This document shows positions 6,406 through 61,756 of a stretch of 64,000 nt of DNA, piece by piece. Each line of letters begins with the position of its first letter. The stretch's first letter is position 1. Location of the stretch: contig JAJSAD010000041.1 of the NCBI GenBank assembly GCA_024281375.1, positions 19,397 through 83,396 on the forward strand. Direction: 5' to 3'. The notes below the pieces were generated by a model that worked only from the letters and a program-made list of their open reading frames with translations, was not told the origin of the DNA and made no database searches. Both the position numbers and the translations under genes were made by a program. Source of the DNA: Alphaproteobacteria bacterium (GTDB lineage Bacteria; Pseudomonadota; Alphaproteobacteria; Caedimonadales; UBA9215).

Positions 6406-6409
6406 ATTT

Positions 6410-6776: not shown

Positions 6777-6921
6777 CAGGACCACCTCATGAAAAAAATA
6801 AGATATTACTAAACCTCAATAATACTTAAGAAAGAGAAGAATGCCACTTCGAATTGAGTTTTTCTCTTCCTCCCACACCCCCATTTTTTTGACTAATAGA
6901 CCACACTACCCGCCCCTTTTT
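6777..6921 (+). repeat. family Z repeat, copy a
   Basis: CAGGACCACCTCATGAAAAAAA..AGATATTAC..CAATAATACTTAAGAAAGAGAAGAATGCCACTTCGAATTGAG..TTTTTGACTAATAGAC matches 35114-35239 closely by eye. It ends in CACTACCCGCCCCTTTT. Confidence 0.75.
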
Positions 6922-7156
6922 ATTTACTTCCTTTTTTTCCACCCTTCTCCTCTCCTTCTCTTTCTGCCTTTAGTCTGCCTATTTCTTGACTAATAGTCAT
7001 TAATAAAGATAAAAATTCCTATATGTCAAAAATCACACGGAAGGGGCAAGGGGGTTTTAGAGAAGAAAGAGGAAGTTTTCTTGCGGAAAGGGGAACAAGG
7101 GAAGAGCCGGAGGCGGGAGAACGAGGGAAGGGTTTAAATCATACAGCCTTTTTTTT

Positions 7157-19382: not shown

Positions 19383-20986
19383 TGATGTCAAAACCTCTCC
19401 TCTCCGTTGAAGATTTAAGCGTCTCCTTTAAAGATGAAGAGGGAGATATTCAAGCTGTTAAAAATATCAGTTACATCCTTGAAGAAGGAAAAACCCTTGC
19501 CCTTGTGGGGGAGAGTGGCTCTGGAAAATCTGTTTCTTCCCTTGCTATTTTAAAACTTCTTCCTTATCCAAAAGCCTTTCATCCTTCCGGGAAAATCCAT
19601 TTTAAAGGGCAAGACTTGCTCTCCTTAACGGATAAACAGTTGGAAAGTATTCGCGGTAGTGATATTGCCATGATTTTCCAAGAGCCCTTAACAGCCCTCA
19701 ACCCCCTCCATTCCCTTGAACGTCAAATTAAAGAAGTTCTCGATCTTCATACAACCCTAACGAATACAGAAAAAACCGACCGTATTGTGGAGCTTTTAAA
19801 GGATGTTGGGTTTCCAGACGGGGTCGAACGCTTAAAATCCTATCCCCATGAGCTTTCCGGTGGACAGCGCCAACGCGTTATGATTGCGATGGCTTTAGCT
19901 GCTCATCCTAAAATCCTCATTGCTGATGAGCCCACAACAGCCCTTGATGTGACAACGCAACTCCAGATTCTCGAGCTCATTAAAACCCTGCAGAAAAAAC
20001 ATAATCTTGCTGTGCTCCTCATTACCCACGATTTAAACGTTGTGAAAAATCATGCGGATTCTGTTGCTGTTATGCGTCATGGAGAGCTCGTCGAGAAAAA
20101 TACAACGGTGGAAATTTTTAGAAATCCACAGCATCCTTATACCCAGGAACTCATTAATGCCGAGCCTCGTGGCCAGGCTGTTCCCCTTCCTAAAAACCCT
20201 GAAACACGATTGATAGCGGAAAATCTTTCTGTTCATTTCCCTATTAAGGCTGGTTTTTTCAAACGAACTGTTAGCTCTATCCGCGCCCTTGAGAGCGCTT
20301 CGTTTAATCTTAAAGAAGGAGAGACTCTTGGGATTGTTGGGGAAAGCGGCTCTGGAAAAAGCACCTTGGCCCTTGCTATTTTACGTCTTCAACGGGCAAC
20401 GTCGGGCAAAATTATTGTTCAGGGAACCGATATCACACATCTGAAAGGTAAAGCCATTCGGTCGTTGCGAAAAGACCTGCAAATTGTTTTCCAAGATCCT
20501 TTTGGGTCTTTGAACCCCCGTCTTTCTATTAATCAAATTATTGTAGAGGGCATTGATGTCCATAGATTGGCAACGACCAAAGATGAAAAAGAACGCCTCA
20601 TTATTAAAGCCATGGAAGAAGTTCACCTAGACCCTGAAACACGTCATCGATACCCCCATGAATTTTCGGGCGGTCAACGTCAACGTATTGCCATTGCAAG
20701 GTCCCTTGTGCTTAATCCTAAGGTATTAATTCTCGATGAACCCACCTCTGCCCTCGATCGGGCCGTTCAGGTGAGTGTCTTAGATCTTTTAAAAGACCTT
20801 CAAGAAAAACGAGGGTTGAGTTACCTCTTTATTAGCCATGATTTAAAGGTGGTAAAATCCATAGCCCACAAGATTATTGTGATGAAAGAGGGGTATATTG
20901 TTGAAGAGGGCTCTGCTCAAGAAATCTTTGAAAATCCCAAAAATTCCTATACCAAAACCCTCATCAAAGCGGCTTTTATGTCTTAG
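19382..20986 (+). CDS. yejF: peptide ABC transporter ATP-binding protein YejF (duplicated ATPase)
   Basis: Two ABC domains: GESGSGKS twice and SGGQRQR twice. 534 aa. The start overlaps the yejE stop. Confidence 0.9.
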   Translation: MMSKPLLSVEDLSVSFKDEEGDIQAVKNISYILEEGKTLALVGESGSGKSVSSLAILKLLPYPKAFHPSGKIHFKGQDLLSLTDKQLESIRGSDIAMIFQEPLTALNPLHSLERQIKEVLDLHTTLTNTEKTDRIVELLKDVGFPDGVERLKSYPHELSGGQRQRVMIAMALAAHPKILIADEPTTALDVTTQLQILELIKTLQKKHNLAVLLITHDLNVVKNHADSVAVMRHGELVEKNTTVEIFRNPQHPYTQELINAEPRGQAVPLPKNPETRLIAENLSVHFPIKAGFFKRTVSSIRALESASFNLKEGETLGIVGESGSGKSTLALAILRLQRATSGKIIVQGTDITHLKGKAIRSLRKDLQIVFQDPFGSLNPRLSINQIIVEGIDVHRLATTKDEKERLIIKAMEEVHLDPETRHRYPHEFSGGQRQRIAIARSLVLNPKVLILDEPTSALDRAVQVSVLDLLKDLQEKRGLSYLFISHDLKVVKSIAHKIIVMKEGYIVEEGSAQEIFENPKNSYTKTLIKAAFMS

Positions 20987-22077
20987 CTTCCAATACCCGC
21001 TTGAACACACAACAAGATCAATTGATCCCGCACAAAACGTCCCGCATATCCAGGGGCGCATCCCCCAGCCGTTCTCGCATTTTCTAAAAGAGAATGGATA
21101 ATGAAATCACGGGAATTTTTTGCAATACCACTTCCGTCAAAATCAAATTGACGCGACAAACCAATAGCCGTTGAAGCTAAATGCCAATTTTGCGATAGAA
21201 TAACCAAAGTGTTTAGCACACCAGACTCAGCATCTCCATAACCAGCGCCACCATATCCAGCTAATTGACCAAGGGCTGCACGAACAGCCGCACTATCCTT
21301 GTAGGCTAAAATCTCAGCCTGTAAATCCGCAAATGAATGCGTTACAAGGGTGCCCCTATAAGCTGTGAAAATTTCTTGAACTTCTGCGATATGTCCTTTA
21401 GACCACGCTTTATTAAAGTCATGGACATCCCCATCATCAAAAGCTTGCGCTGAAGCGAACAATGTTCCCAATTTTGCTTTATGATCTGAAGATAAATGAC
21501 TGGTAGGAGCGACATAAGTAGTTATTGGTTCTGCTGGAAAACGCTCTTCTGCATCTTCTTCCTTGAGGCGAAGAATATACTCACGTGAAGCTGCTTCTTG
21601 ACGCTTTTTTTCAGTCAGGCGCTCTTCTTCTTGAAGACGACGAATTAAATCCAAAGAAGCTGAGTCATCTGGCACGGGGGTCTCCGATGTTTCTTGGCGA
21701 CGGCTCAAAAAAGCCGCTGTGGCTACTGCGACTAGAGAATGGGTATAAGGGTCAACAGTTAAAGTGCTTTTAGCTGTTTCTCTTGCTTGGTCATCAAGAA
21801 AAGCAGCCGCGGCTCCATAATCAGAAACACCTTGATCAGCCATCGTTTGAAGCAATGTGTTCTCAGAATAACCATGTTGCTCAACAGTAGATGGTGTACT
21901 AGAAATAGAACGCTGTACCACCAAGCTTGCTTCTGCATCCGCCCAATCGCAACCCGTGTTTTGCATAACTTCCATAATATCCGTTTCAGAAAACGCACTT
22001 GCTTGCGCCCCTGTCCCAGCAGATAATCCACAAACTAAAACTGTCAAAAAAGAAAAATTTAAAAATTTCATAATCAT
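20983..22077 (-). CDS. hypothetical secreted protein with two N-terminal UBA/TS-N-like repeats
   Basis: Signal peptide (..GLSAGTGAQASA). Repeats are SETDIMEVMQNTGCDWADAEASL and SENTLLQTMADQGVSDYGAAAAFL, followed by a charged helical segment and a ~180-aa C-terminal domain of unknown type. The 3' end overlaps yejF by 4 bp. Confidence 0.6.
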   Translation of the reverse strand: MIMKFLNFSFLTVLVCGLSAGTGAQASAFSETDIMEVMQNTGCDWADAEASLVVQRSISSTPSTVEQHGYSENTLLQTMADQGVSDYGAAAAFLDDQARETAKSTLTVDPYTHSLVAVATAAFLSRRQETSETPVPDDSASLDLIRRLQEEERLTEKKRQEAASREYILRLKEEDAEERFPAEPITTYVAPTSHLSSDHKAKLGTLFASAQAFDDGDVHDFNKAWSKGHIAEVQEIFTAYRGTLVTHSFADLQAEILAYKDSAAVRAALGQLAGYGGAGYGDAESGVLNTLVILSQNWHLASTAIGLSRQFDFDGSGIAKNSRDFIIHSLLENARTAGGCAPGYAGRFVRDQLILLCVQAGIGS

Positions 22078-35113: not shown

Positions 35114-35335
35114 CAGGGCTACCTCATGAAAAAAAATTTAGATATTACGACTCCCCAATAATGCTTAAGAAAGAGAAGAATGCTACTTAGAATTAAGTTT
35201 TTTCCTTCCCTCCACCGCGTGATTTTTGACAAATAGACATTTTTCATAGAAATTTTGGACCATTAGTCAAAAAATTAGTAAAATAAAGGCACAAAAAGAG
35301 GTAGGGAAAGAACGAGGGGAAGGAACAAGAGGGCT
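35114..35335 (+). repeat. family Z repeat, copy c, plus purine-rich tail
   Basis: 35114-35239 aligns with 6777-6900. It is followed by inverted TTTTGACAAATAG / CATTAGTCAAAAA and the purine tract GGGAAAGAACGAGGGGAAGGAACAAGAGGG, which resembles 7085-7132. Confidence 0.75.
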
Positions 35336-35344: not shown

Positions 35345-35881
35345 TTAGGGCGTTTTAATCAGATATTTCTGATAGGTTTTTTGCAAGCGTTTGTCTGTAT
35401 ATTTCAATTCCTTTTCCACACTTGCCGCACGTTCAATAAACAGAATTAAGAAAATTTTTTGTTGGATGATTTTGAGTTTATGGATGTAGGATTCAACAAT
35501 CCAGTTTCCATGTACGTATTCATCAATTAAAATATATCGCACCTGCCGATCACTATCGGGAATTTTATCATTTTCTTTAAGTTTAGCCTCAAGTTTTTTA
35601 TGCTCTTTTTTAAGGCGTTTATACGAAACTGCTCGTTGGGGACTCTTTTTTAGGATTGCAGAGACTTTTTGTGTGTGCTCTACGATTTTAAAAAGGCCGG
35701 TCGTTGAGGTGCGATAAAGGTCAAGGTCTGTCGTGGGGTATTGTGTACGGACGCGAAAGTTTTTAATAATGGCAGATGTAATAATATCATAGGCTGTTTT
35801 TTCATTCGTTTTTGTTTTTTTTGCGTAAACAACTGTTGCACTTAAGAAAAGTGCAAGGTAAAGACAGTAGAATTTTTTCAT
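35345..35881 (-). CDS. hypothetical secreted lysine-rich protein
   Basis: 178 aa with signal peptide MKKFYCLYLALFLSATVVYA. No recognisable domain. Confidence 0.5.
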   Translation of the reverse strand: MKKFYCLYLALFLSATVVYAKKTKTNEKTAYDIITSAIIKNFRVRTQYPTTDLDLYRTSTTGLFKIVEHTQKVSAILKKSPQRAVSYKRLKKEHKKLEAKLKENDKIPDSDRQVRYILIDEYVHGNWIVESYIHKLKIIQQKIFLILFIERAASVEKELKYTDKRLQKTYQKYLIKTP

Positions 35882-40229: not shown

Positions 40230-40356
40230 TATACCTATTCAGCTTCAACGTGTAGGTTTTAAAACCAGACCAGAGCTCCCGGAGCGTATACTTTATACGT
40301 GAGGACAGCGATTGTGTCGCCGTTTTGAATTCCACACGTTGAAAGAGGATGGGTAT
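40230..40356 (+). repeat. MITE-like element, family X (127 bp)
   Basis: TATACCTATTCAGCTTCAACGTGT...ACACGTTGAAAGAGGATGGGTAT has imperfect terminal inverted repeats. The first ~75 nt are nearly identical to the reverse complement of 59165-59240. Confidence 0.75.
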
Positions 40357-43367: not shown

Positions 43368-43439
43368 TATAGTCGACTCAATAAAGTTCCAGTTTAGGAG
43401 CGCAGGAACGACGTCTGGGACCTTATTGAATCGAGTATA
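43368..43439 (+). repeat. family Y palindromic element, core-deleted copy
   Basis: Arm TATAGTCGACTCAATAAAGTTCCAG, then TTTAGGAGCGCAGGAACGACGT, then inverted arm CTGGGACCTTATTGAATCGAGTATA. It ends 1 nt before the stop of the GT2 gene. Confidence 0.75.
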
Positions 43440-44300
43440 TTATTTATGCATAATTTGTTTGAGAAGATCGGCAACCAATCCCAAGCCCACAATAACAAGA
43501 GAGACAAGTAAGCCCCCAATACCAAGGTAAAAACCGCTTTGAAGTCCCATAAAAATGGATAATAGAAACCCCCCAATCGAGCCTATTATACAAAGGGCTG
43601 CAAACAGCATGAAGATTTTTATGGGGTTATAATAGTTAATGGACTGCAAAATATATTGGAGAGTCCGCAAAGAGTCTTTAACCAGCTTTACTTTTGTTTG
43701 TCCCTCTCGTTTTTCATACGGAATGGGAAGATATTTCACAAAACGACCGGTCATCATATAAGCTAGAGTCATAGACGTTGTAAAGCTAAAGGTATCACAG
43801 AGGTGATCAACATATTCTAAAACGGTTTTACGACTAAAAACCCGCAGGCCTGAGTTAATATCAGGAATTTCACGGTTAGCGGTAAATTCTACGAGAAACT
43901 TGAGGATTTTACGCAAAGGAGCTTTAACCAGAGATTCACGATAATGACTTCCTGTGCGCGCGCCCACAACCATGTCAAATCCCTTTTTGAATTCTTTAAG
44001 AAGCATGGGCGCTTGATCAAAAGGATAGGTGCGATCCGCATCGGTAATAACGATCGTATCGAATTTAGCCTTGCGGATCCCATCTTTTAAGGAGCGCCCA
44101 TAGCCCACATTATGAGGATGGTTAACAACAGTAACGCCTTGGGCTTTTGCAATTTCTCCTGTTTTATCAGAAGATCCATCATTCACAATAACAATTTCAA
44201 AGTCCTTCGTTTTGTTTTCTTTGAAAACTTTTTTGATGTCATCAATGGTTTCTTTGATGGCGTTTTCTTCATTGTAAGCAGGGATAACAACACTAATCAT
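43440..44300 (-). CDS. family 2 glycosyltransferase, polyprenyl-phosphate sugar synthase type (GtrB/ArnC/DPM1-like)
   Basis: VVIPAYNEE, NDGSSD and ITDAD motifs, plus two C-terminal TM helices as in GtrB/ArnC-type enzymes. Confidence 0.8.
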   Translation of the reverse strand: MISVVIPAYNEENAIKETIDDIKKVFKENKTKDFEIVIVNDGSSDKTGEIAKAQGVTVVNHPHNVGYGRSLKDGIRKAKFDTIVITDADRTYPFDQAPMLLKEFKKGFDMVVGARTGSHYRESLVKAPLRKILKFLVEFTANREIPDINSGLRVFSRKTVLEYVDHLCDTFSFTTSMTLAYMMTGRFVKYLPIPYEKREGQTKVKLVKDSLRTLQYILQSINYYNPIKIFMLFAALCIIGSIGGFLLSIFMGLQSGFYLGIGGLLVSLVIVGLGLVADLLKQIMHK

Positions 44301-46255: not shown

Positions 46256-47566
46256 TTAAGCCTCCTGTTTCTCAAACTTGGTCCCAAAAAACGCATTATG
46301 AATAAGTATCAATAAAAAGCTCCACAAGGGAATGGCCGTATAGATAGTAAAGCGCGTCAAGAGCGGTTCAAAAAGAGCAACCAACATAACATTTCCAAGG
46401 TGTAAAGTCACAAGCATCAAAAAGGTTTCTTTCTCAAAGGTTGGTCGATAAAGGTTTTTAAAGAACACACACAAAGTCATTATCATGAGAATAAAACTTG
46501 TCCAGTATTCTCCAAAACCATAAATGAGTGTACGAACATAGAATTGAACATATTGAATAATGTGTCGACGTGCGAGCTTGAGACCAATGGAGAGTAATTG
46601 AGCATCTTGTTTATAAGAGTCTTGACTGAGATGTCTCCCGGATGCTGGCCCTATATTGGCATAGCAGAGGGTGTTGTAAATTCCTTCGTAATGGAAAAGA
46701 GGCCGCGTGCCATCTCCTCCGCCAATAGAAAGATCATTTTTGGCTATTTGCTCTGAAATATCTTTAAAGAAGGCTCTTTCTTGAGGGTCGGTAAAAAGAT
46801 CAATATCACTTGGAGAAGATAAATGGAGGGGAAGGATAATAAACTGATAGCCTACAAAAGGAACCATTTTGAAGCTCCCTGTTAACGCATAACTGTAAGC
46901 CCGTTCAGCCAAATTTCCTGCACCAATAACAACAATAACAACAATTAAACGTGCAAAAAATTTCTGAGTTTCTTTGTGTTTATAAAGCATATAGAACAAT
47001 AAAATCAACAAAGCTGGCCATAGAAATAAAAACTGGCTACGGGTTAACGTCAAGAGTAAGGCAAGGGAAATGATCCCAACAAAAGAAGTCATCGTTTTTT
47101 CTTTTAAAAATTTCAAAAGAAAAGAAAGAAGAAGGAAGAAGAAAGGATAACAAAGAGCTTCTGTTAAAATATGATTACCAATCCCGTGAAAAATAAAATA
47201 GGGGACAAAGCAAAAGAAAAAAATTGCTCCTGCAATAAAGGGCGTAACATAGAAGAAACGTCCCAGAGTTTTCACAAATCGATCTATGGAAAAGACCCCT
47301 AGAATCAATTGTATAGCGACTATTCCATAGCCTAAATCGCCAAAAATCCATTGATTGATCTTTAAAAAGAGAGGGTACAATAGTGAACGACCTGGGGACA
47401 TATGAATATAGCCCCCTGAATCGGGAGCAAGCGCTGCTCCTTGAATGAGTAAGTAAAGAGAAATAAGCAGAATAGTACTATAAAAAAAGAGCGTTGATCG
47501 TCTGTTACCAAAAATAGATGTTTTTATCATAAAAAATATTTCAAAAAAAGAGCTCAGATAGGTCAT
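46256..47566 (-). CDS. polytopic membrane protein, possible GT-C-type glycosyltransferase
   Basis: At least 10 predicted TM helices plus one soluble loop. It sits 2 nt upstream of asnB on the same strand. Start uncertain (TTG 47596, ATG 47566, ATG 47530). Confidence 0.55.
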
Positions 47567-47687
47567 TTTATACACGGGGCTATGCAATTTGTCCAAGACA
47601 TTTAACTTAATCTATCCACTATTTTCTTGTACTTTGATTGCATTTTCCCTTATGGTGGGGAAGATATTTAATAGAAAGCTTAATATT

Positions 47688-49430: not shown

Positions 49431-50033
49431 ATGTCTGATTCTTTAAGTCTCAAAAATTTTACCGTTCACAGAACGGGCGTTCCTCTTTTTGAGCCCCTTT
49501 CATTGACTCTGAAACAAGGAGAAGCCTGCGAAGTTTTAGGGCCCAATGGCATTGGAAAAACATCTTTATTAGAGAGTTTAGCTGGCTTGCATTGTGAAAC
49601 ATCTGGGCAGTTTTCTATCCCTCCTTCCTTCTTTTACCTCTCCACACAAGGGCCCTTTGATAAAGAAGAAACCCTTGAAAATAATCTTTCATTTTGGAAG
49701 AGCTTGTGGAAGGTTACGTCAGATGAGTTTGAACAATCCCTTAAAATTTGGCACTTAAAATCTCTTTGCAAATTACCTTATGAACACCTTTCCCAAGGTC
49801 AAAAACAGCGCGTTAATCTTGCACGGCTTTCCTTAAAAAAAGCGATCTTATGGGTGTTAGATGAACCGACCGCAAACCTTGATCAGAAAAGTTGTGAGAT
49901 TTTTCAACACTGTTTAAAAAAGCATTTAAAGACAGAGGGTCTAGCTCTCATTGCAACCCATCACCCTTTGGGATCAACGCATCAACTTTTTCTGCAAAAC
50001 CCGACTTTCCTGCAAGAAAAGGAAGCGGCATGA
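49431..50033 (+). CDS. ccmA: heme exporter ATP-binding protein CcmA
   Basis: 200 aa ABC ATPase (GPNGIGKTS, LSQGQKQR, LDEP), directly coupled to ccmB. Confidence 0.85.
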   Translation: MSDSLSLKNFTVHRTGVPLFEPLSLTLKQGEACEVLGPNGIGKTSLLESLAGLHCETSGQFSIPPSFFYLSTQGPFDKEETLENNLSFWKSLWKVTSDEFEQSLKIWHLKSLCKLPYEHLSQGQKQRVNLARLSLKKAILWVLDEPTANLDQKSCEIFQHCLKKHLKTEGLALIATHHPLGSTHQLFLQNPTFLQEKEAA

Positions 50034-50683
50034 TCTCTTTTCTTTTGTTTTTTAAGCGCGATATAAAACAAATTTTTTTAAACCCACGTTTAATGATTCT
50101 TCCCCTCTGCTTTTTTTCCATAAGCCTTTTTTTAATTCAGTTTGCCCAAATAAGTACGTCCTCTACAGCTCTGTATTGGGTTCTCTTTATTGTGAGTACA
50201 ATGGGCGTTTTAGGACAAAACATCGCCCGAGATTATGATATGAATTTTCTCCAAGCCCTCCAAAGTGAACACCTTTCTCTCACACCCTATATCCTATCAA
50301 AAGCTTTGAGTCTTTTGATGGCTTGGGCAATACCCTTTTGGATTTTTGTGGAGGGAATACACTTTTTTGAGGGCACTTTGACAAGCTTATTTGCCTTTAG
50401 AAATTTCGTTATTATTTTATCTGTTTCCGGAGCCTTAGGTTTTTTGTATTGTCTCTTTGATACTCTTTTTCTTCATGGCAAACGACCCGCTTTTTTAGCT
50501 TTTATTTTACTAACGCCCTTTATACTGCCTCTCTTAATTTTAAGCCTTTTGAGCCTTGAACAAAATACGTTGAGTTCCCTTGTGCCTGTTATAGGGTATG
50601 CCGCTTTTCTCAGTTTTGGCGCTTTTTTGATGACGAAAACAGCTATAGTCGTTCCAAAAAGGTTTCAGTCTAGGAAAGAGTGA
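50030..50683 (+). CDS. ccmB: heme exporter protein CcmB
   Basis: 217 aa, 6-TM CcmB-like protein with ATGA overlap with ccmA. The last 13 codons lie inside a family Y repeat. Confidence 0.8.
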   Translation: MISFLLFFKRDIKQIFLNPRLMILPLCFFSISLFLIQFAQISTSSTALYWVLFIVSTMGVLGQNIARDYDMNFLQALQSEHLSLTPYILSKALSLLMAWAIPFWIFVEGIHFFEGTLTSLFAFRNFVIILSVSGALGFLYCLFDTLFLHGKRPAFLAFILLTPFILPLLILSLLSLEQNTLSSLVPVIGYAAFLSFGAFLMTKTAIVVPKRFQSRKE

Positions 50684-50705
50684 AACCTTTTTGGAATGAC
50701 TCTAT
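50644..50705 (+). repeat. family Y palindromic element, minimal copy
   Basis: TATAGTCGTTCCAAAAAGGTTTCAG, then TCTAGGAAAGAG, then TGAAACCTTTTTGGAATGACTCTAT. It spans the 3' ends of two convergent genes. Confidence 0.7.
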
Positions 50706-53700
50706 TTGTCATTAAATTCTTGATCAAATATATCATTGCTATCGTCCGCTTCATCAATCCAACCATCGTCTCGTGTGAGGCTTGACTCCGCTGAGGGGAA
50801 GATATTTCGCGTGATACCTGGCGTAATGATCGACAGGGGATTTGCGATAACATTAGGGTTGTCTTTTGTCCCTGTCACCCCAAAAGAAACAGAGAAAAGC
50901 CCTTCATTCTTACCGCCGGCAATCACTTCTCCAATAAGGGGAATTTTCGACACAAGAGTGTTCAAAACATAAAGAGGGATCATGTTCCCTTGAAGGTTTA
51001 AGCGCCCTTGAGGTCCCCGTTCAATCTCTCCATTGAGGTTAAAGCCAATGGAAATACCGTGCGCCCGACTGCCATGAATTTTAAAGGCTTTGGGCGAAGC
51101 GCCAAAACGCACTTTCATTAGGCGAAATTTCATACCAGCATCACTAGTCAGTTCAGTCCCTGCCGTTGGAAAAAGAGAGAAAATCCTAGTAATAAGAGGT
51201 GCATTTAAAAGAACAAAATGACGCACACGAATTTTTCCAACCCACTCTTCTTGACGAAAAGCGGGGTCATGATAAGCCACTAACTTAAATTGCCCTCCGC
51301 GAATGTTTTCAAAAATATCAAGAGCTCTTAAAAAAGCACCGCCCTGTTCTGTTTGAATACGAAGTTTTCGAAGACCATTTTTCTTTTGATATATTTCAGC
51401 ATAAACATCTCTGTTTTTCCCAGTGGCTTCTTCCGTTAACCCTTTATAGGAAAGGGTATGTATAAGTCCTTTTTCAAGACGCATTTTCAACACATTATTC
51501 AAAAGACCTATTTCTTTTCCAACGGTTATTTTTTGAGCCGTGAATTGAATTTGAAGAGGCGTTTCATCTTGAGGGTATTTTTTCATATGATTGGGGTTAG
51601 AAAGATCAGACAAGTCAGTATCCATAAAGTTTTTAAGATCAACACGCTGTCCCTTAAGATCTAAAACACGCACACCATTTCTATCGGGAATATAGTAAGC
51701 ACTCACAATGCTTTGCCCCTTATGAATCCATTCCAAGTTTAAATCTTTTAAGGTGTCTGTTTTGGGAGAAAAATGCCCTTTCCCATTTATTTTCCATCCC
51801 TCGTTGTCCTGAAAATGAAGAGAATTCAAATGGGTAAGGTGTCCTTGTTGATAGCGTCCCTTAACGGATAAGGTCCCTGAAATCCCTCTCTTTTTTTTCA
51901 TCACAAGGGTGTTGAGTTCAGCATCTTTTAAGTTGAAATCAAGGGACAACGTCCCCTCTTTTTTACCATCAACATGATAGTGCAACTCAAGAGACGCAAT
52001 ACCCTGAAAAAACATCCCTGCGTCATGCCATAATTTATTTAAAGCTTTGGGCGTGACGTCTGTTTTTACTTTTAAATCAAGATGTTGCGTTTCGACGTTT
52101 TTGACAAGATGAAGGTGAGATTTCTCTCCATTTAAGAGAGCTGTTCCCTCAACGGCAACATCTTTTAATCCCACATCAATTGTGAGATCTCCCTTGAAAA
52201 GATCAATATCTAATCCGGCTAGGTCATCCAAACGTGCATCGGTTACTTGGGCTGTTACTTTTGTTTGAATATCCTCTGTTCTAAAAGGCGATGAGAGAGG
52301 GAAAGTCATCTTAAGCTTAGCCTCTGTTTGGCCACGAGCTGTTTTAGGATCTAGGCCATAATCTTTAGCATATTCAAGGGGTTTATGGTCAATCAGGGAG
52401 AGAACATTTCCAAGGTCACCAACAATAACGACATTTAAAGTAAGGTGCGGTGTGTCATCGGAAAAATTCCCAATAAAAAGATCACCGGATGTTATTTTAA
52501 GACCATGGGTTTCACCACTTTTAATTTTAATATCAAAATGCTCATGATCAAAAGTCGCTGTCGCCATTAGGTTATTTATTTTTGGCATAGTCTCAACATA
52601 CCCGAGCAGAGCCTTATGCACGTCGATTGTGCCTGATAGTTTATCGAGATTAAAAAAGGATGATCTCCCTGAGAAATCAAGGTGGCTTTTCATCACAAGG
52701 TCTGCTTTTGAGGCGGTCCCACCGGTGATGTTCTCTGTAATCCATTCCCGTGCGCCATCGGCAGCCCCCTTAGGCCAAATGTTACCAAGATCTTTAAAAG
52801 GAATATTGACCACATTAACATGGGTTTCAAAAGAAATACGATCCGATTTTTCATCAATATGACCCGTTGTATTGGCTTTGATGGGGATACCCTGAACGGA
52901 TGTGGCGACCTCTTTGAGTTGAAAGTCATTACCGCTTAACGCCCCTTCAAAAGACAGTTCTGGGAATTTTAAGGGAGCCTTCCAGTAAGCAGAATGACTT
53001 ACATCAACATTTTTAATGCTGCCGTTGAGCTGAGCTTCATGTTTTTTTGATTTCGGGAAATAGCGATAATGCCCACGAAAGAAAATATTTTGAAAGGTTA
53101 AGTCTTGCAGGAAAATTTCTGGGACGACATCGTCAAAGGTTTTAGAATCAAAGCCCTCTACTTGAAGGGTTATATCAATGGAATCGGCTCCCTTCTCATA
53201 AAAAAGAGTACTTTGAATTTTTCCAGGATTATTTTGGTTTTGGGCAATAATACGGCCCTTTAATGTTCCCTTGATGTTCGTAATTTGAGCAGAAATATCA
53301 AGGGTAATTGGATGGGACTGCGCATCAATCACAAGGGAGCTATTACTAATATGAACAGCCTGTAGATCGAGCAAATCTTCAATAAAATTATTTACCTTTT
53401 TAAAGTTCAGGTCTGCTTTGTACTGATCATCGCCAACATCTCCCTTAAAAGAATGAATAGAGAGTTTCATCCCCTCAATAATAACTTTTTCAGGAATGAA
53501 TTTAAATTTTAAAAGAGAGTGAAGAGGAAAATACAGTTGTCCTTTTTTAAGAGAAATCTCGCGATGTTTTTCTTTTCCCTGTCTATAATGAATTCCTAAC
53601 CCCTCAAGACGTATGGGGGCATTCAGATCATCCCAGGCCAACTGTAACGTCTCAAATTCCAGAGTGTCCGCTTGATGAAGAACCTTTTCAGCGAGATGGG

Positions 53701-53836
53701 ATTTTAAAAAATCTAGGTTAATTGGGCCTCGGTAAAGTTGGACCAAAAAGAAACCCACAAAAACCGTTGCAAGAAGGACAAGGGAGGTTAAAGTAACAAA
53801 AATGTATTTAAAAAAACGCTTCAACAGGGTACTCAT
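50702..53836 (-). CDS. large AsmA-like/YhdP-like (DUF3971-type) envelope protein
   Basis: 1044 aa with a single N-terminal TM anchor followed by long beta-rich repetitive sequence. Family call is made by architecture only. Confidence 0.55.
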   Translation of the reverse strand: MSTLLKRFFKYIFVTLTSLVLLATVFVGFFLVQLYRGPINLDFLKSHLAEKVLHQADTLEFETLQLAWDDLNAPIRLEGLGIHYRQGKEKHREISLKKGQLYFPLHSLLKFKFIPEKVIIEGMKLSIHSFKGDVGDDQYKADLNFKKVNNFIEDLLDLQAVHISNSSLVIDAQSHPITLDISAQITNIKGTLKGRIIAQNQNNPGKIQSTLFYEKGADSIDITLQVEGFDSKTFDDVVPEIFLQDLTFQNIFFRGHYRYFPKSKKHEAQLNGSIKNVDVSHSAYWKAPLKFPELSFEGALSGNDFQLKEVATSVQGIPIKANTTGHIDEKSDRISFETHVNVVNIPFKDLGNIWPKGAADGAREWITENITGGTASKADLVMKSHLDFSGRSSFFNLDKLSGTIDVHKALLGYVETMPKINNLMATATFDHEHFDIKIKSGETHGLKITSGDLFIGNFSDDTPHLTLNVVIVGDLGNVLSLIDHKPLEYAKDYGLDPKTARGQTEAKLKMTFPLSSPFRTEDIQTKVTAQVTDARLDDLAGLDIDLFKGDLTIDVGLKDVAVEGTALLNGEKSHLHLVKNVETQHLDLKVKTDVTPKALNKLWHDAGMFFQGIASLELHYHVDGKKEGTLSLDFNLKDAELNTLVMKKKRGISGTLSVKGRYQQGHLTHLNSLHFQDNEGWKINGKGHFSPKTDTLKDLNLEWIHKGQSIVSAYYIPDRNGVRVLDLKGQRVDLKNFMDTDLSDLSNPNHMKKYPQDETPLQIQFTAQKITVGKEIGLLNNVLKMRLEKGLIHTLSYKGLTEEATGKNRDVYAEIYQKKNGLRKLRIQTEQGGAFLRALDIFENIRGGQFKLVAYHDPAFRQEEWVGKIRVRHFVLLNAPLITRIFSLFPTAGTELTSDAGMKFRLMKVRFGASPKAFKIHGSRAHGISIGFNLNGEIERGPQGRLNLQGNMIPLYVLNTLVSKIPLIGEVIAGGKNEGLFSVSFGVTGTKDNPNVIANPLSIITPGITRNIFPSAESSLTRDDGWIDEADDSNDIFDQEFNDK

Positions 53837-55751: not shown

Positions 55752-55857
55752 TATAGTGTTTCTACAAGTGCACCAGTCTAGGAAAGAGCGACCGACGACT
55801 ATACTTCATAGTTTAGGAGCGACTGACGACGTCTGGAGTGCTTGTAGAAATACTATA
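55752..55857 (+). repeat. family Y palindromic element, full copy (106 bp)
   Basis: Arm TATAGTGTTTCTACAAGTGCACCAG, then the 56-bp core TCTAGGAAAGAGCGACCGACGACTATACTTCATAGTTTAGGAGCGACTGACGACGT, then inverted arm CTGGAGTGCTTGTAGAAATACTATA. Confidence 0.8.
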
Positions 55858-56601: not shown

Positions 56602-57834
56602 ATGAAACAATTTTTTAACTATGGGCTTAAGATAGCCTGTCTTTCACTCCTTTTTCTGATGCCCACCCCGGGATTTTCTAGTGATATCGTGCCAGAGGAT
56701 GGCATTAAAAACACCACATCTTGTCCCTACACAAGTTCTGCTGATATTCCAGAGGGGGTGAGTGATTATGTTGCAAAAAATATGATGAGTATGGGGATAA
56801 ATACAGCCCTTAAAGTGATGGCGTGCACTGGTCAATTAGATGAACGCGCTTTCGCAACCGCCTGGAGTGAGCTACAGGATCACTTAAAAGTGTTAGGGGG
56901 AGAAAGATGTCAGGCTCTTGCCGCTAAAATTACTGACGATAAGGTCAAAATGTTTTTGAATATTATCCCCCCTAATGCGGATTATACCTTAGATATCTTC
57001 TTTCAGCATAACACCGGAAGGGCAGAAGAAATTCTTTCTTCTATTGAAGCCCTGCAAGCACAAATTTTCATTGAGGAAGACGAAATGGCAAAAACACGTC
57101 TTCAGCAGGAGCTTCTTTATCTTGGAAAACGCTTGCATGCGGCGAATGACCCAACGGCTCGGAGCATCACGGGCACCCTGCTTTTTGGTGGTTTACATGA
57201 CCCTCGTCTAGAACAAGCCTTTTTGGAAAATGCTGTTGAGGAAGTCCATAAACAAGCGAGAGACTTTTCTGAAAATAAAATTGGGGTTGAAGAAAAAGAT
57301 GTTCTTGCAAACAATGTCTTTATTATATTAGGGGAAACATATAAAGCGGGGGCTGCAGCTCTCTCTCATATTATTAGAGCTGGTGATACCGTCACAGAAG
57401 AACAAAAAAACCTTTATGGTAGCCTATCTGCTTTCTATCATCGATTTTATTCTCCCCTCATAAAACAAACAATAACATCAGACGGGGTTATTGATGCCTA
57501 TAAGGAATTCATGGACCTCCGTCGTCATTTGACTTATTTCCACATTGGGGATGAGGGACATGAAATTGAAAGTCCTTTTCCTGTACCAATGCTAGAAACC
57601 GTTGACACGGGGGATGAAAGAGCAACAGCCTCTATTGAAGCCTCCAAAACAAAATTAGAAAGAACAGCAGAATTGACGATGGAAATGGGTGCTATCCCAG
57701 CACAGCTTGAAAATATCAGCGCCCGTCGAGAAGCAGTCGGGAATGATGATGAAGCACTAGCTGCTATTGAAGCAGATAAAGCTGAGATCATTGCACGTAT
57801 TATGCAAATTCAACAAGAACTCGCCGATCTTTAA
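56602..57834 (+). CDS. hypothetical secreted protein
   Basis: 410 aa with a signal peptide (..LLFLMPTPGFSS), mostly helical and acidic, with a coiled-coil-like C-terminus. GGAAGG lies upstream. No family recognised. Confidence 0.55.
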   Translation: MKQFFNYGLKIACLSLLFLMPTPGFSSDIVPEDGIKNTTSCPYTSSADIPEGVSDYVAKNMMSMGINTALKVMACTGQLDERAFATAWSELQDHLKVLGGERCQALAAKITDDKVKMFLNIIPPNADYTLDIFFQHNTGRAEEILSSIEALQAQIFIEEDEMAKTRLQQELLYLGKRLHAANDPTARSITGTLLFGGLHDPRLEQAFLENAVEEVHKQARDFSENKIGVEEKDVLANNVFIILGETYKAGAAALSHIIRAGDTVTEEQKNLYGSLSAFYHRFYSPLIKQTITSDGVIDAYKEFMDLRRHLTYFHIGDEGHEIESPFPVPMLETVDTGDERATASIEASKTKLERTAELTMEMGAIPAQLENISARREAVGNDDEALAAIEADKAEIIARIMQIQQELADL

Positions 57835-57858: not shown

Positions 57859-57887
57859 AAGTCCCGCTATGATGCGGGGCTTTTTTT
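57859..57887 (+). terminator. rho-independent terminator
   Basis: AGTCCCGC-TATGAT-GCGGGGCT followed by T7. The T-run overlaps the stop codon of the convergent transporter gene. Confidence 0.7.
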
Positions 57888-59064
57888 AGGCTAATTGAGC
57901 TGTGGTTTTATGGAGTTTTGAATAGATTTTTTCAAACAGGAGAGCGAAAGCCCCATTACCAAAAACGTTAGCTGATGTCGCAATGGGATCAAAAAGAATA
58001 TACAAGGCGAGAATCAACGAGAGCATTTCAGGAGAAAATCCGAGGTACTTTTCTAAGACGGGAAGAATCACAATAACGCCTCCCCCCGGCACAGCCGCCA
58101 CAGAAAAACGCGCAATAACAAAAAAGACCGTGAACATCAAAAAGGCCTGAGGCGTTGGCAGAGGTACGCCAAAGGACACCATAATAGCAAGACCTAAAAT
58201 AGAGAGAGAAAAACAATCTCCAATCATATGAATGTTAATACTTAAGGGCACGACGCCATTGACGATGGGATTCTTAGAGGTTTTTTCTGAGGCCGTTGTA
58301 ATAAGAGGCAGCGCAGAAGCGCTAGACATAGTGCTAAATCCCGTCACAAGGGCAGGAATCATATTGCGGATACTTTTGAACCATTTTTCAGGCTTAAATC
58401 CCGCAGCTAAGCCATAAAGAAGAGTGATATAGGTAAAGGCGAGTACAGTAATGGCGACGAAAACCGATAGATAATTTTGAACGATAAGGTCCAGCACGCC
58501 ATCAAATTCCATTTTAAGGATGAACCCAAGAACAAAAATAGGAATGACCGGGATAAAGAAAAACTTTAGAAAACGCAACGCATAATGCTGGGCTTTTTGG
58601 GCTAGGTGCTGTCCTTTTTCAAAGCCTGTCATAGAGAGAATAATACCCACAAAAAGCCCTGAAAAAAGAGCGGCATCATTGGAGAGAAAATGGGGAAAAT
58701 CCAAATCCCATAAAGGAGCGAGTTCGGTGCCTGATTTTGCAAAGGGTTGAATGGTATCCAGAGCTTCTAAAGTAAACATCCCTAGAAATCCCGCAAAGGA
58801 GGTCGCTGTGAAATTAGAAACAATCACCATGAGAAAGGCGATAACAACGAAGGAAAGAGCACCTTTTTGAAGGGCTCCAACACTGCTAATGAGAAAAGAA
58901 AAAATAATAAAGGGGAGTACCATCAAGAGGGCTTCTTTGATGGAAAGACTCAAGGCAAAAAGCGTTGACTTAACATCCGTTGATACCAAATCCCCAAAAT
59001 AAAGACAAAGAATGATCTCAGCAATGAGAATAAGGGGAAGGGTTAAGTCTTTAAGTTTTCCCAT
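57886..59064 (-). CDS. dicarboxylate/amino acid:cation symporter (DAACS/SDF) family, divergent paralog 1
   Basis: 392 aa with HP1-like MSSASALPL, HP2-like AAVPGGGVIV and the TM8 motif DPIATSANVFGNG. Confidence 0.8.
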   Translation of the reverse strand: MGKLKDLTLPLILIAEIILCLYFGDLVSTDVKSTLFALSLSIKEALLMVLPFIIFSFLISSVGALQKGALSFVVIAFLMVIVSNFTATSFAGFLGMFTLEALDTIQPFAKSGTELAPLWDLDFPHFLSNDAALFSGLFVGIILSMTGFEKGQHLAQKAQHYALRFLKFFFIPVIPIFVLGFILKMEFDGVLDLIVQNYLSVFVAITVLAFTYITLLYGLAAGFKPEKWFKSIRNMIPALVTGFSTMSSASALPLITTASEKTSKNPIVNGVVPLSINIHMIGDCFSLSILGLAIMVSFGVPLPTPQAFLMFTVFFVIARFSVAAVPGGGVIVILPVLEKYLGFSPEMLSLILALYILFDPIATSANVFGNGAFALLFEKIYSKLHKTTAQLA

Positions 59065-59091
59065 GGTGTCTTGTCCTTTTTATTGACAGTA

Positions 59092-59240
59092 TATACTCAT
59101 CCTCTTTCGACGTCTGCCAAGTATCTTTATTGGCAAAACGGCGACATATCCCAAAGTCATAATGTCCTCACGTATAAAGTAGACGCTCCGGGAGCTCTGG
59201 TCTGGTTTTAAAACCCACAGGTCGAAACTGAATAGGTATA
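59092..59240 (-). repeat. MITE-like element, family X (149 bp, full length)
   Basis: Its reverse complement, TATACCTATTCAGTTTCGACCTGTGGGTTTTAAAACCAGACCAGAGCTCCCGGAGCG...GTCGAAAGAGGATGAGTAT, aligns with 40230-40356 and 6410-6527. Confidence 0.8.
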
Positions 59241-59342
59241 GTCCTTCCAAAAATGTTCTAGTCTAGGAAAGAGTAATCGACGACTATGCCTTATAGTTTA
59301 GGAGCGATTGACGACGTCTGGGACTTTTTTTGACGGACTATA
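59237..59342 (+). repeat. family Y palindromic element, full copy (106 bp)
   Basis: Arm TATAGTCCTTCCAAAAATGTTCTAG, the 56-bp core, then CTGGGACTTTTTTTGACGGACTATA. It shares its first TATA with the end of the family X copy and overlaps the last 16 codons plus the stop of paralog 2. Confidence 0.8.
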
Positions 59343-60547
59343 AAGGCATTGTATACTTTCTCGAAGAATTGGGCAAATGCCCCATTCCCAAAGACGTTAG
59401 CTGAGGTCACAATAGGATCAAAAAGGATATAAAGAGCCGTAATCAAGGACAGCATTTCTGCGGTAAATCCTAGGTATTTTTCAAGGATGGGAATCATCAC
59501 AAGGATTCCCCCGCCAGGAACAGCCGCCACCGCAAATTTTGCCAACACAAAAAAGACCGTAAAAATAAGGTACTCTTGAAGGGTCGGAAGAGGGTGTCCA
59601 AAGGATACCATGATCGCAAGGGCAAGAATTGAAATGCCAAAACAGTCCCCAATAAGGTGAATGTTGATGCTAAGGGGCACAACCCCTGTGGTGGCCTTAT
59701 TATGGGTGTTTTGACGCACTCCTTCAATCAGCAAAGGCAGGGCAGAGGCGCTGGACATGGTACTAAACCCCGTGAGCATAGCGGGAAAAATATTCTGTAT
59801 GCTGCGACGCCATTTAGAGAAGCTAAAGGTCGCAGCAAGACCGTAGAGAAAAATAATATAGGTATAAGCCAACACCACAATCACAGCCACAATGGCGAGA
59901 TAATCTTGGAAAATGGAAGACAGAATTCCGCTGTGTTCCATGTTTAAAATATATCCCAAAATAAAAAGCGGAATCAGGGGAATAAAAATTTTCCGAAAAA
60001 AGGCAAAAGCATAACTGTTCATTTTTTGAGAAATTTTTTGGGTTGCTTTATGACCCGTAAAGGCCAGCAAAAGACCCGCCCCAATGCCTGAAAAAAGAGC
60101 CATATCATTGGAGACAAATTTCAGAGCTTTTAACGTCCAAAAATTTGTGACGGCCTGAAGGGTTTCAGGTTCTAAAAACCTCTCCCATAAAGGGATAAGG
60201 GGCTCTGCTGCATTGTTTGTGTGTTGCGCAATATCCATCAAACTGAGGAAATAAGACCCCGCAAATCCCCCAAGGGATGTTGATATAAAGTTGGAAAAAA
60301 CAACAAGAGAAAAGGCTAAGGCAGCAAACGAAAGTGCTCCTTTGCTAAGGCTTCCCAAGCTATGAAAAATAATCGAGAAGATAATAAAAGGCAAAAGGGT
60401 CACCAGCATTTCTTTTAAGAAAATACTTAAAGAATAAAATCCCGCTTTCACCGTCGTTGGAATGAGATCACCAAAAGCAAGGCACAGAATAATTTCGGTA
60501 ACCAAAATGAGGGGGAGTTTTAATTCTGATAACTTCAGAGATGACAT
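59291..60547 (-). CDS. DAACS/SDF-family symporter, divergent paralog 2
   Basis: 418 aa with MSSASALPL, AAVPGGGILV and DPIVTSANVFGNG. The C-terminal tail IVRQKKSQTSSIAPKL is encoded by the repeat. Confidence 0.8.
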   Translation of the reverse strand: MSSLKLSELKLPLILVTEIILCLAFGDLIPTTVKAGFYSLSIFLKEMLVTLLPFIIFSIIFHSLGSLSKGALSFAALAFSLVVFSNFISTSLGGFAGSYFLSLMDIAQHTNNAAEPLIPLWERFLEPETLQAVTNFWTLKALKFVSNDMALFSGIGAGLLLAFTGHKATQKISQKMNSYAFAFFRKIFIPLIPLFILGYILNMEHSGILSSIFQDYLAIVAVIVVLAYTYIIFLYGLAATFSFSKWRRSIQNIFPAMLTGFSTMSSASALPLLIEGVRQNTHNKATTGVVPLSINIHLIGDCFGISILALAIMVSFGHPLPTLQEYLIFTVFFVLAKFAVAAVPGGGILVMIPILEKYLGFTAEMLSLITALYILFDPIVTSANVFGNGAFAQFFEKVYNAFIVRQKKSQTSSIAPKL

Positions 60548-60565
60548 CTTATTTCTATATCCCTC

Positions 60566-61756
60566 CTAGGGTAACGTTTTTTTAGGGGTGAGCACCCTAT
60601 TTTTTCTACGATATGCTCGCTCAAACAATTGAGCAAAGGTGCCATGCCCCAACACATTAACAGGCGTGATAAGCGGATCAAACAAAATATAAAGCGCTGT
60701 GATGAGAGAAAGCATCTCCCCAGAAAAACCAAGGTATTTTTCAAAAACGGGAAGGGTAATCAGAACACCTCCCCCCGGTACGCCCGCAACGGCAAATCGC
60801 GCAATAACAAAAAAGACAGAAAATAACAGAAAATCCGGAAGGGAAGGAAGGTCATACCCAAAGGAAATCATAATCGCAATAGCCTGAATAGACATAGAAA
60901 AACAGTCCCCAACCAAATGGGTGTTAATACTCACCGGCACCACACCCGGTGTGAATTCTTCAGTCGTATTTTTCTCCACAGCTTCAATCACAAGGGGGAG
61001 GGTGGAGGCACTGGACATGGTTGTAAAACCTGTAATCATACCCGGCACAAGGTTTTTAAGGCCTTGGCTCCATTTTGCTTTATTAAAGCCCATGGCGAGG
61101 GCAAAAAGGAACAAAAGATAGCTGACGGCAACGATGATAATCAGAAGGGCAATAGGCAAATAGTGTTTGAAAACAGAGGTTAACAAACCATCGTCTTGCA
61201 TCTTTAGAATAAAACCGAGAATGAAAATAGGAAGTAACGGAATAAAAAGACGCTTTAAGAAAAATAAAGAAGCCTCTTGCATTTTATGGGCGATATTTTG
61301 GCCTTTTTCATCCCCCCAAAGGGACAATAGAACACCGGCAATAAGGCCTGAAAAGAGCGCAACATCATTGGAAACAATCTGGGGAAGGTTCAAGTCCCAC
61401 AGCGGAGCGAGAGTATCTGATGAGAGCGTTACTTTTTCAATAAGTCCGAATTGCCCCAGGGTAAAAATACCTAAAAACCCTCCAAGGATTGTTGCAGTGA
61501 AATTAGAAATAATCACAAATGAAAAGGCAAGGGCCACAAAGGAAAAGGCACCTTTTTTGAGGGTCCCAATACTGTTCAAAAGAAAAGAAAAAATCACAAA
61601 GGGCAACGCAAAAAGAAGCATCTCCTTTAAACTAAGGCTAAGGGCATATAAACCTGATTTTATCCCCTCAGTAATAAAGTCCCCAAAGGTTAAGCACACA
61701 ATGATTTCTGTGATCAAGATCAAGGGCACCTTAAAATCCGACAAAATCTTTTTCAT
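60566..61756 (-). CDS. DAACS/SDF-family symporter, divergent paralog 3
   Basis: 396 aa with MSSASTLPL, AGVPGGGVLI and DPLITPVNVLGHG. It lies 18 bp from paralog 2. Confidence 0.8.
   Translation of the reverse strand: MKKILSDFKVPLILITEIIVCLTFGDFITEGIKSGLYALSLSLKEMLLFALPFVIFSFLLNSIGTLKKGAFSFVALAFSFVIISNFTATILGGFLGIFTLGQFGLIEKVTLSSDTLAPLWDLNLPQIVSNDVALFSGLIAGVLLSLWGDEKGQNIAHKMQEASLFFLKRLFIPLLPIFILGFILKMQDDGLLTSVFKHYLPIALLIIIVAVSYLLFLFALAMGFNKAKWSQGLKNLVPGMITGFTTMSSASTLPLVIEAVEKNTTEEFTPGVVPVSINTHLVGDCFSMSIQAIAIMISFGYDLPSLPDFLLFSVFFVIARFAVAGVPGGGVLITLPVFEKYLGFSGEMLSLITALYILFDPLITPVNVLGHGTFAQLFERAYRRKNRVLTPKKTLP

Follow-up and report, generated by a model that had tools for sequence, protein, structure and literature searches.

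A table of bacterial MITEs (miniature transposable elements with inverted repeats) compiled by Delihas (PMC2229807) includes the Correia/NEMIS elements of 107 and 155 bp, RUP, ERIC and the Rickettsia palindromic elements (RPEs), and a survey of stem-loop repeats in 40 genomes has distinguished 92 families, 67 of them new (PMC2267715). Insertion sequences of the IS630 family have ends of about 24 bp and duplicate a TA dinucleotide, as for ISY100 (PMC2170065), and REPINs are thought to act as single-stranded hairpins and to be long-lived within lineages (bioRxiv 10.1101/2021.07.10.451892). Here we analyze a 64-kb stretch of the 111.5-kb contig JAJSAD010000041.1 (‘the window’, always at its full length), which is ordinary chromosome of an uncultured alphaproteobacterium with 41% G+C, and describe F1, a family of approximately 106-nt palindromic repeats, together with F2, a second palindromic family in the same window. 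F1 is a new family within the well-known class of bacterial miniature elements, and is unusual mainly in that its centre is better conserved than its arms.

A full F1 copy consists of a 25-nt arm, a 56-nt core and a second 25-nt arm, giving 106 nt, and full copies vary in length only from 105 to 107 nt with this 25 + 56 + 25 layout kept throughout. Read in order, the consensus is TA, a 23-nt arm (TAGTCATTCCAAAAAGGTTCCAG), the core, the inverted arm and TA. The core is asymmetric, with the consensus TCTAGGAAAGAGCGATCGACGACTAT-NYCTT-ATAGTTTAGGAGCGAATGACGACGT, and in the full consensus it is flanked by TATAGTCATTCCAAAAAGGTTCCAG on the left and CTGGGACCTTTTTGGAATGACTATA on the right. Inside the core lies a direct repeat, GAGCGAC(C/T)GACGAC, whose two units in copy A are given below with the copies found in the window:

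Copy A, 55752-55857, + strand: full length, 106 nt; covariance model 112.7 bits, E 1e-27.
Parts of copy A, + strand: left arm 55752-55776, core 55777-55832, right arm 55833-55857.
Conserved centre of copy A, 55786-55830, + strand: unit 1 (GAGCGACCGACGAC) at 55786-55799 and unit 2 (GAGCGACTGACGAC) at 55817-55830.
Inner hairpin of copy A, + strand: GACTAT at 55797-55802, loop ACTTC at 55803-55807, ATAGTT at 55808-55813.
Copy B, 59237-59342, + strand: full length; covariance model 111 bits, E 4e-27.
Copy C, 43368-43439, + strand: both arms kept, core reduced by deletion to its last 22 nt (unit 2 only); covariance model 39.5 bits, E 1e-7.
Copy D, 50644-50705, + strand: both arms kept, core reduced by deletion to its first 12 nt; covariance model E 3e-10.
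Copy E, 6373-6405, - strand: remnant with the right arm and 8 nt of core, fused to a truncated F2 copy.
Sixth F1-type copy, 573-677, - strand: full length at 105 nt, of a diverged subfamily; covariance model 62.5 bits, E 6e-14.

F1 is a genuine dispersed palindromic repeat family. The arms of copies A and B, each 25 nt long and spaced by 56 nt, are 84% and 80% complementary respectively, and the two copies are 76% identical across 106 nt (self-comparison, E 5.8e-16). A profile hidden Markov model (HMM) returned copies A to E at E-values of 1e-31, 3e-27, 6e-8, 2e-5 and 4e-5; with HMM and covariance-model E-values spanning 1e-31 to 4e-5, chance is therefore excluded for these five. They are the copies on which the original prediction was built, and each lies where it was placed and has the anatomy described for it, including the internal direct repeat. 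Its count of five was nevertheless too low, since the covariance model found the diverged copy at 573-677 and brought the total in the window to six; F2, the core as a conserved module and the strand-asymmetric fold had also been missed. The deletion in copy C is located between repeated AGT(C/T)TAGG motifs, and copy E has the arm subfamily of copy C (92% identity to 43407-43443). The subfamily of the 573-677 copy is also present at two fetched loci, L029 and L022.

F1 is apparently undescribed, as far as our checks reached. A gathering-score search against Rfam 15, whose families include hammerhead, twister, pistol, hatchet, HEARO and IMES, matched only a tRNA-Leu, and E-value searches of copy A, and of copy B together with F2, gave only chance matches to microRNA hairpins, at 11-25 bits where the gathering scores are 56-249. 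Collections of plasmids, phages and viral contigs held no F1 match, a full-text literature search for four F1 strings returned no paper, and a protein search with translated F1 peptides matched no protein, all of which agrees with the earlier remark that the sequence was not a recognizable one. Membership in an already defined system (an integron attC site, REP/REPIN-RAYT, an IS200/IS605 palindrome-associated transposable element, a known ribozyme or another Rfam RNA) is largely refuted, and we regard it as very improbable. F1 does recall attC sites as an imperfect palindrome at gene ends with variable arms and kept structure, but RYYYAAC/GTTRRRY boxes are missing (the termini are TATAGTC/GACTATA), there is no cassette array and no integrase, and the copies are scattered among housekeeping genes in both orientations. 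Hairpins of about 100 nt with compensatory stem evolution likewise recall REPINs. However, a REPIN has two conserved REP units around a variable spacer, whereas F1 has variable arms around a conserved centre, the opposite pattern; the F1 arms have neither an internal palindrome nor a GTAG box. A hammerhead ribozyme was considered and rejected: copy A has GAAA and CUGACGA boxes, but hammerhead-like CUGANGA/GAAA boxes are not conserved across the family, the G of CUGA (G5) varying (CUAACGA, GAAACGA), and stems I and III could not be drawn.

Other functions considered for the F1 sequence were also rejected. A small ORF (open reading frame) or a Shine-Dalgarno sequence with ATG in the core is contradicted by an unconserved ATG and by frames open in a minority of copies, the only open frame (+2) being open in 11 of 29. 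Copies A and B have no promoter or terminator signature in common, and in candidate CsrA-type GGA sites the first GGA is unconserved.

F1 is not confined to the window, and the original prediction thereby withstands the refuting outcome it had named, a lack of further copies. The copies belong to several uncultured alphaproteobacteria that are related to one another. A core-pattern search of the GTDB genome set found one copy, on contig CAXBEY010000001 of a related metagenome-assembled genome (MAG), between der and an addA-like helicase gene. The core-type pattern was also present on 22 metagenome contigs, with one full copy each (mostly Ga0209633, also JGI24023J19991 and Tara), and the HMM and covariance model added seven copies in metagenome loci, among them two diverged subfamilies. 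The genes beside the outside copies are unrelated housekeeping genes, such as mnmA and genes for aminotransferases, transporters and a DnaJ-domain protein, and across the window, the MAG and the 22 metagenome contigs the neighbourhood differs from copy to copy.

Comparisons with relatives indicate that these copies are polymorphic. The spacer between the AlgH and ABC-F genes, which holds copy A, is 184 nt in the window and 71 nt in a relative whose ABC-F is 77% identical. At locus L026, where MnmA is 94% identical, mnmA and a convergent ABC gene overlap by 6 nt, and at L008 a full F1 copy occupies this junction; F1 is thus absent at two orthologous gene junctions of close relatives. No F1 copy was found in approximately 69 kb from four relatives (L002, L003, L026-L028), and a fifth, L029, has one diverged copy and one remnant. 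Within the window itself, decay is visible as internal deletion (C, D) and truncation (E).

Two loci hold altered copies of other kinds. At L018 (932-1037, - strand) an opening F1 segment of 34 nt (arm plus TCTAGGAAC) gives way to unrelated AT-rich DNA, which ends in ACTATA at full-copy distance (105 nt), as if the interior had been swapped. At L024 (5871-5937) a half copy contains the left arm, unit 1 and inner hairpin; its break, directly after the inner ATAG, falls at the internal mimic of the F1 terminus, and a terminator-like hairpin comes next.

By the criteria used for bacterial MITEs, F1 is small (below 200-300 bp), non-coding and present in many dispersed copies that are polymorphic between relatives, and it matches the class in size, terminal inverted repeats, terminal TA, a long stem-loop, deletion variants and gene-end fusions (PMC2229807). 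We therefore read F1, with a probability of roughly 0.6, as a trans-mobilized, TA-targeting, non-autonomous hairpin-forming MITE of the Correia/RUP/ERIC class. The simplest guess for the transposase is a TA-specific enzyme of the Tc1/mariner/IS630 type. The element would insert into a TA dinucleotide, the TA would then be duplicated, and an enzyme whose gene lies elsewhere than in the window would catalyse the movement in trans.

The ends of F1 bear on the first of these steps. TA is found at both ends, with T1 and A2 in 24 of 26 copies and the mirror TA at the 3′ end, as the original prediction had seen, and T1, A2 and A4 are almost invariant. Position 3 covaries with position 104 in an inverted sense (TAGAGTC...GACTCTA), and the inverted repeat therefore begins at position 3, so that only the outer TA could be a duplication. 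Beyond TATA there are no direct repeats at the ends. We infer a TA target duplication from these three features, the near invariance of T1, A2 and A4, the 3/104 covariation and the absence of direct repeats past TATA; the duplication that had been proposed earlier is not established, as no clean empty site was obtained.

Position relative to genes is consistent with the same preference. All copies either lie between genes, 0-25 nt from a stop or start codon, or run into a gene's last codons or its stop codon, and in this sense the earlier statement that copies sit exactly at gene boundaries is right. Three copies in the window provide stop codons, and two of these provide C-terminal residues as well. 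The terminal TATAG of the 573-677 copy makes the TAG stop of a phosphoglucomutase-like ORF (110-577), and the minus strand of copy B contributes the final 16 codons of an SDF transporter gene (59291-60547, - strand) together with its TAA stop. Copy D encodes the stop and last residues of a CcmB-like ORF (50030-50683, + strand), replacing its end and lengthening the product by about 8 residues (...IVVPKRFQSRKE*), and it also overlaps the TAG stop of YhdP (50702-53836, - strand). The right end of copy C adjoins the TAA stop codon of the gene at 43440-44300 (- strand). A stop codon would offer a TA in an insertion-tolerant place, and TAA and TAG would be tolerated targets in a gene-dense genome, which would explain the gene-boundary pattern.

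Copy B lies in a region (57886-61756) of three tandem paralogues of the sodium:dicarboxylate symporter family, of which the two compared have 52% protein identity. An F2 copy and copy B stand between paralogues 1 and 2, and paralogue 2 carries the F1-encoded C-terminal tail.

Among described elements, Correia/NEMIS is like F1 in length (106 versus approximately 107 bp), in inverted arms of about 25 nt and in TA at both ends, and the terminal hexamer TATAGT is common to both (Correia repeat tatagtggattaacaaaaatcaggacaa, PMC5039591). Long stem-loop transcripts, size variants arising by deletion or insertion, and fusion to ORF ends are further points of likeness (PMC2229807). Beyond the TATAGT terminus and an A-tract, however, nothing in the arms is significantly similar (main arm p 0.15; best 0.03, uncorrected). 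Correia arms are conserved and the centre is optional, whereas in F1 the centre is conserved and the arms vary; Correia is hosted by Neisseria and F1 by a marine alphaproteobacterium of 41% GC. RUP of Streptococcus pneumoniae also has a length of about 107 bp, TA termini and a proposed TA duplication, and for RUP and other IS630-derived MITEs mobilization in trans by an IS630-family transposase has been proposed (PMC2229807).

A resemblance to Tc1 is seen in the termini, TA-(T/C)AGT in F1 and TA-CAGT in Tc1, and the commonest F1 arm has CCAAAAAG at the same offset as the Tc1 inverted repeat (PMC3680223). The match of this arm to the Tc1 repeat has a p of 0.0035 before correction for 14 comparisons and is marginal after it, and the resemblance is missing in the other F1 arm subfamilies. 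The IS630/mariner origin suggested in the original prediction is not established, what speaks for it being arm size, the terminus and this weak resemblance.

ERIC/IRU and RPE elements are, like F1, dispersed imperfect palindromes of 100-150 bp with internal-deletion variants, and ERIC also has TA termini. A conserved central region and RNA folding that depends on orientation are features of ERIC. RPEs are alphaproteobacterial, are without a known mobilizing enzyme and contribute in frame to proteins, and the behaviour of F1 at gene ends had been likened to theirs; its fusions are indeed somewhat like those of RPEs or of the 107-bp Correia species. No sequence relationship of F1 to ERIC/IRU or RPE elements is evident. 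F1 differs from RPEs in touching only last codons, without insertion inside genes, and in the limited openness of its +2 frame.

The core of F1 is better conserved than its arms. Copies A and B are 64% identical in the arms and 88% in the core, copy A and the L021 copy are 36% and 84% identical, and subfamilies with a common core have arm identities of 36-66% and core identities of 84-91%. Part of this is ascertainment, because the metagenome copies were fished with the core pattern, which forced 23 core positions to be invariant. Outside these fixed positions, divergence within the main subfamily is 6.9% for the core versus 10.6% for the arms. The core-over-arm contrast is real but more modest than at first sight.

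Although the arms differ between copies, they stay self-complementary within each copy, as had been noticed from the sequence alone. RNAalifold and pair counting on 26 full copies gave the same structure, a 25-bp outer stem and a 6-bp inner stem (GACTAT/ATAGTT) closed by a pyrimidine-rich loop, and covariation supports this hairpin. Across the 26 copies 94.5% of cells are paired versus 83% in shuffles, and 18 of 28 pairs change on both sides. The observed value was reached by none of 500 shuffles for four of five measures and by 2 of 500 for the fifth (further pair types), and slid controls were only 31-52% paired. In the inner stem 100% of cells are paired, and it covaries across subfamilies, one pair occurring as A-U, G-C or C-G and another as C-G or U-A. 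The two stems are separated by a symmetric internal loop (about 20 + 19 nt) in which both direct-repeat units lie. Here the facing GAGCGA motifs could form G-C/C-G flanked by tandem G·A pairs; their positions hardly vary across copies and are thus beyond the reach of covariation. The inner hairpin GACTAT..ATAGTT repeats the duplex of the F1 termini (TATAGTC...GACTATA).

The two strands of F1 do not fold equally well. The better-folding strand is the one with TCTAGG...GACGACGT in 24 of the 26 aligned copies and in the three copies of the diverged subfamily, making 27 of 29 full copies overall. For the 26 aligned copies the mean advantage is 8.3 kcal/mol, or 7.5 kcal/mol for the arms alone; copy A folds at -41.4 kcal/mol on the + strand versus -28.0 on the - strand, and the 573-677 copy at -43.7 versus -29.6 kcal/mol. 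Orientation relative to flanking genes is random (6 sense, 5 antisense in co-directional contexts) and shows no link with local GC skew (14 versus 17). The asymmetry is independent of both, and the distinction between strands is therefore intrinsic to the element, which suggests that a strand-specific single-stranded form matters. An orientation tied to replication was rejected, given the lack of a GC-skew link and opposite orientations within a few kb (L016, L009).

Several observations weigh against reading F1 as a TA-targeting MITE. First, no clean filled/empty pair is available: L008 and L026 differ by about 24 nt beyond F1, and spacers in the window are too diverged to align with those of L002 and L003 (77-80% protein identity). 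Second, when 50 of the 56 main ORFs in the window were swept against Pfam/NCBIfam, no transposase, integrase, Y1/RAYT or reverse transcriptase gene came up, in agreement with the original prediction as far as a transposase is concerned, and no cognate insertion sequence for F1 was found; no transposase or Y1/RAYT gene was seen beside the copies in the outside loci either. Third, the arms of a DDE-type MITE should be conserved as the protein-binding part, but those of F1 vary instead, with at least four arm types in one window (A; B and D; C and E; the 573-677 copy). Finally, the arm mismatches on the better strand comprise 85 G·U versus 13 A·C, a bias to one strand that double-stranded cut-and-paste does not predict. 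The G·U excess recurs in each of at least seven arm lineages and is therefore not inherited from a single founder; the one-sided changes in the main subfamily number 39 for G·U and 12 for A·C, and Watson-Crick pairing is kept through double changes at 14 pairs. F1 differs from what is expected of MITEs derived from IS630/Tc1 in its arms, which are not conserved within the family, in its strand-asymmetric pairing and in its conserved core, and a core kept as a module together with a strand-asymmetric fold makes F1 a poor fit to a plain DDE-type MITE.

One possible though unlikely alternative is a structure-dependent mobile hairpin, in which the folded sense strand would be the substrate, either as single-stranded DNA for an HUH/Y1-type or other hairpin-binding enzyme or as RNA for a reverse transcriptase. 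The asymmetric core with its 6-bp inner hairpin would be the recognition module, the arms would need only to pair, and TATAGT/ACTATA at the base of the stem would be the site of cleavage or joining. Several features of F1 fit such an element better, namely a core better kept than the arms among subfamilies that coexist in one genome, arm pairing preserved through many double changes, a sense strand that folds better and tolerates G·U in every arm lineage whatever the gene orientation or GC skew, and an inner hairpin that mimics the duplex of the termini. However, the sweep found no HUH/Y1, RAYT or reverse transcriptase gene in the window, and the layout is unlike IS200/IS605 ends and unlike REP/REPIN, with their conserved arms and variable spacer. 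Constant TA flanks and symmetric 25-nt arms are the expectation for a TA-specific DDE transposase, the conservation of the core is in part an artefact of how copies were collected, and concerted change in the arms could stem from template switching at quasi-palindromes, for which selection is not needed. In the preferred reading of F1 as a trans-mobilized MITE, we take core conservation and one-strand pairing as signs that the sense strand, folded as single-stranded DNA during movement or as read-through RNA, would also matter for propagation.

A transcribed hairpin raises another hypothesis, that F1 is an RNA module used by the host and kept for the sake of its neighbours, with mobility only historical; it would protect mRNA 3′ ends, provide an RNase III site, act in attenuation or bind a protein via the purine-rich internal loops. 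Pairing that tolerates G·U is a hallmark of RNA helices, the antiparallel pairing open to the GAGCGA of both core units (a G-C/C-G step within tandem G·A) would suit such a role, an RNase III gene lies in the window (12385-13050), and Correia and ERIC hairpins have been reported to modulate mRNA (PMC2229807). The divergence of orthologous copies gives evidence in both directions. L021 (2057-2162) and L025 (677-782), from genomes about 12% diverged, share an orthologous degenerate F1 with TGTAATG...CATTAGC ends. Its left arm and core differ at 1 of 81 positions, its right arm at 5 of 25 and the flanks at 8-15%. On the other hand, the orthologous pair at L010 and L024 differs at 6 of 106 positions, the same rate as its flanks. 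Moreover, orientation is random, so that for half of the copies it is the poorly folding strand that is transcribed; copies in the window decay by deletion (C, D, E), no promoter or terminator signature is common to them, and no Rfam family matches. Together these make the hypothesis quite unlikely, less so than membership in a defined system. F1 as a mobile MITE could still act on transcripts: where it is co-transcribed with its neighbours, its 25-bp stem would serve an RNase III-type enzyme as substrate or stabilize 3′ ends.

F2 shares several of these properties and is represented in the window by three copies:

F2 copy, 40230-40356, + strand: 127 nt; 35-nt arms around a 56-nt core, ends TATAC...GTATA; 28.9 bits to the F1 model.
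F2 copy, 59093-59240, - strand: 148 nt, with two internal insertions; adjoins copy B, with which it has the terminal TATA in common.
F2 copy, 6422-6530, + strand: truncated, joined to copy E.

The F1 covariance model scored the 40230-40356 copy at a rough E of 8e-5, on the + strand only; generic hairpins of the window reached at most 16.4 bits. Aligned with each other, the F1 centre (AGAGCGATCGACGACTATGCCTTATAGTTTAGG--AGCGAATG) and the F2 centre (AGAGCTCCCGGAGCGTATACTTTATACGTGAGGACAGCGATTG) match at 27 of 43 positions (z about 3 against shuffles). The strand assigned to this F2 copy by core similarity is also its better-folding strand (-50.5 versus -38.9 kcal/mol), and the F2 inner hairpin GTATA/TATAC repeats the duplex of the TATAC...GTATA termini, parallel to F1. 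These similarities are suggestive of F2 being a distant relative of F1, with three F2 copies to judge from; no F2 was found in the fetched loci outside the window. At both loci where F1 and F2 adjoin (copies B and E, which belong to different arm subfamilies), the same F2 end faces the F1 copy and the relative orientation is identical; in the pair near 6.4 kb (6373-6530) an internal deletion joins F2 to the last 33 nt of F1. This abutment points either to the F2 terminus as a preferred target or to a pair that moves as a unit.

F2 is also relevant to the mobile-hairpin alternative, as it combines unrelated arms and a weakly similar core with the same polarity and fold asymmetry. F1, F2 and their subfamilies might be a superfamily of mobile hairpins, in which the asymmetric 56-nt centre, and not the terminal repeats, sets specificity and a strand-specific single-stranded intermediate (DNA or RNA) is used; we consider this speculative and on the unlikely side. 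If true, it would be a replicator design opposite to that of REPINs and unlike that of DDE-type MITEs, and would imply an undiscovered partner enzyme in these marine alphaproteobacteria.

The remainder of the window is made up of genes that include those for gyrase/topoisomerase IV subunit A, RecO, Era, RNase III, FtsK, AcrB, RNase J, YhdP and ABC-F, along with a mer operon and one tRNA-Leu. In public data the closest proteins have 80% identity, and the MAGs they belong to carry only the label ‘Alphaproteobacteria’. Named relatives (Emcibacter, Magnetospira, Caedibacter/Paracaedimonas, Kiloniella) have 53-67% protein identity, the nearest for the housekeeping proteins being Caedibacter/Paracaedimonas-like and Emcibacter-like. 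Eight ORFs had no Pfam/NCBIfam match: 56602-57834, 1381-1743, 4770-5600, 5607-5849, 5889-6278, 20983-22077, 35345-35881 and 46256-47596. The product of the first, 410 residues long, has an N-terminus resembling a signal peptide.

Three further features of the window were recorded. A mercury-resistance operon (merR, merT, merP-like HMA, merA) opens the region 1871-6700 and is followed by three unmatched ORFs (4770-6278) and a 22-bp hairpin that is nearly perfect (6295-6338); beyond these lie the F1/F2 remnants and, at 6616-6700, tRNA-Leu(CAA). The region could be an island beside a tRNA gene. A third repeat, at 6777-7051 and 35114-35321, is about 80% identical between its two sites, part direct and part inverted, and carries TTGACTAATAGTC-like motifs and pyrimidine-rich runs; one site is beside the tRNA-Leu, upstream of ctaA, and the other between an NDUS4-like gene and an ORFan. 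Two adjacent ORFs, 7363-7758 and 7783-8445, share the COX15/CtaA haem A synthase between them, covering profile positions 2-101 and 115-321 respectively, which reflects a frameshift, a pseudogene or an assembly error.

F1 has practical consequences for annotation: stop codons and short C-terminal tails arise from it, intergenic regions are split by it and metagenome assemblies break at it. It also marks genome plasticity in a marine alphaproteobacterial lineage about which little is known, and is a handy population marker. With several arm subfamilies, one core and a G·U signature on one strand, it is also a clean natural data set on the constraints that act on bacterial MITEs. To our knowledge, the mobilizing enzyme of most of these elements, Correia included, is still unknown. 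The conservation of core over arms and the strand-specific pairing of F1 might point to how such elements move, whether as double-stranded DNA or as folded single strands.

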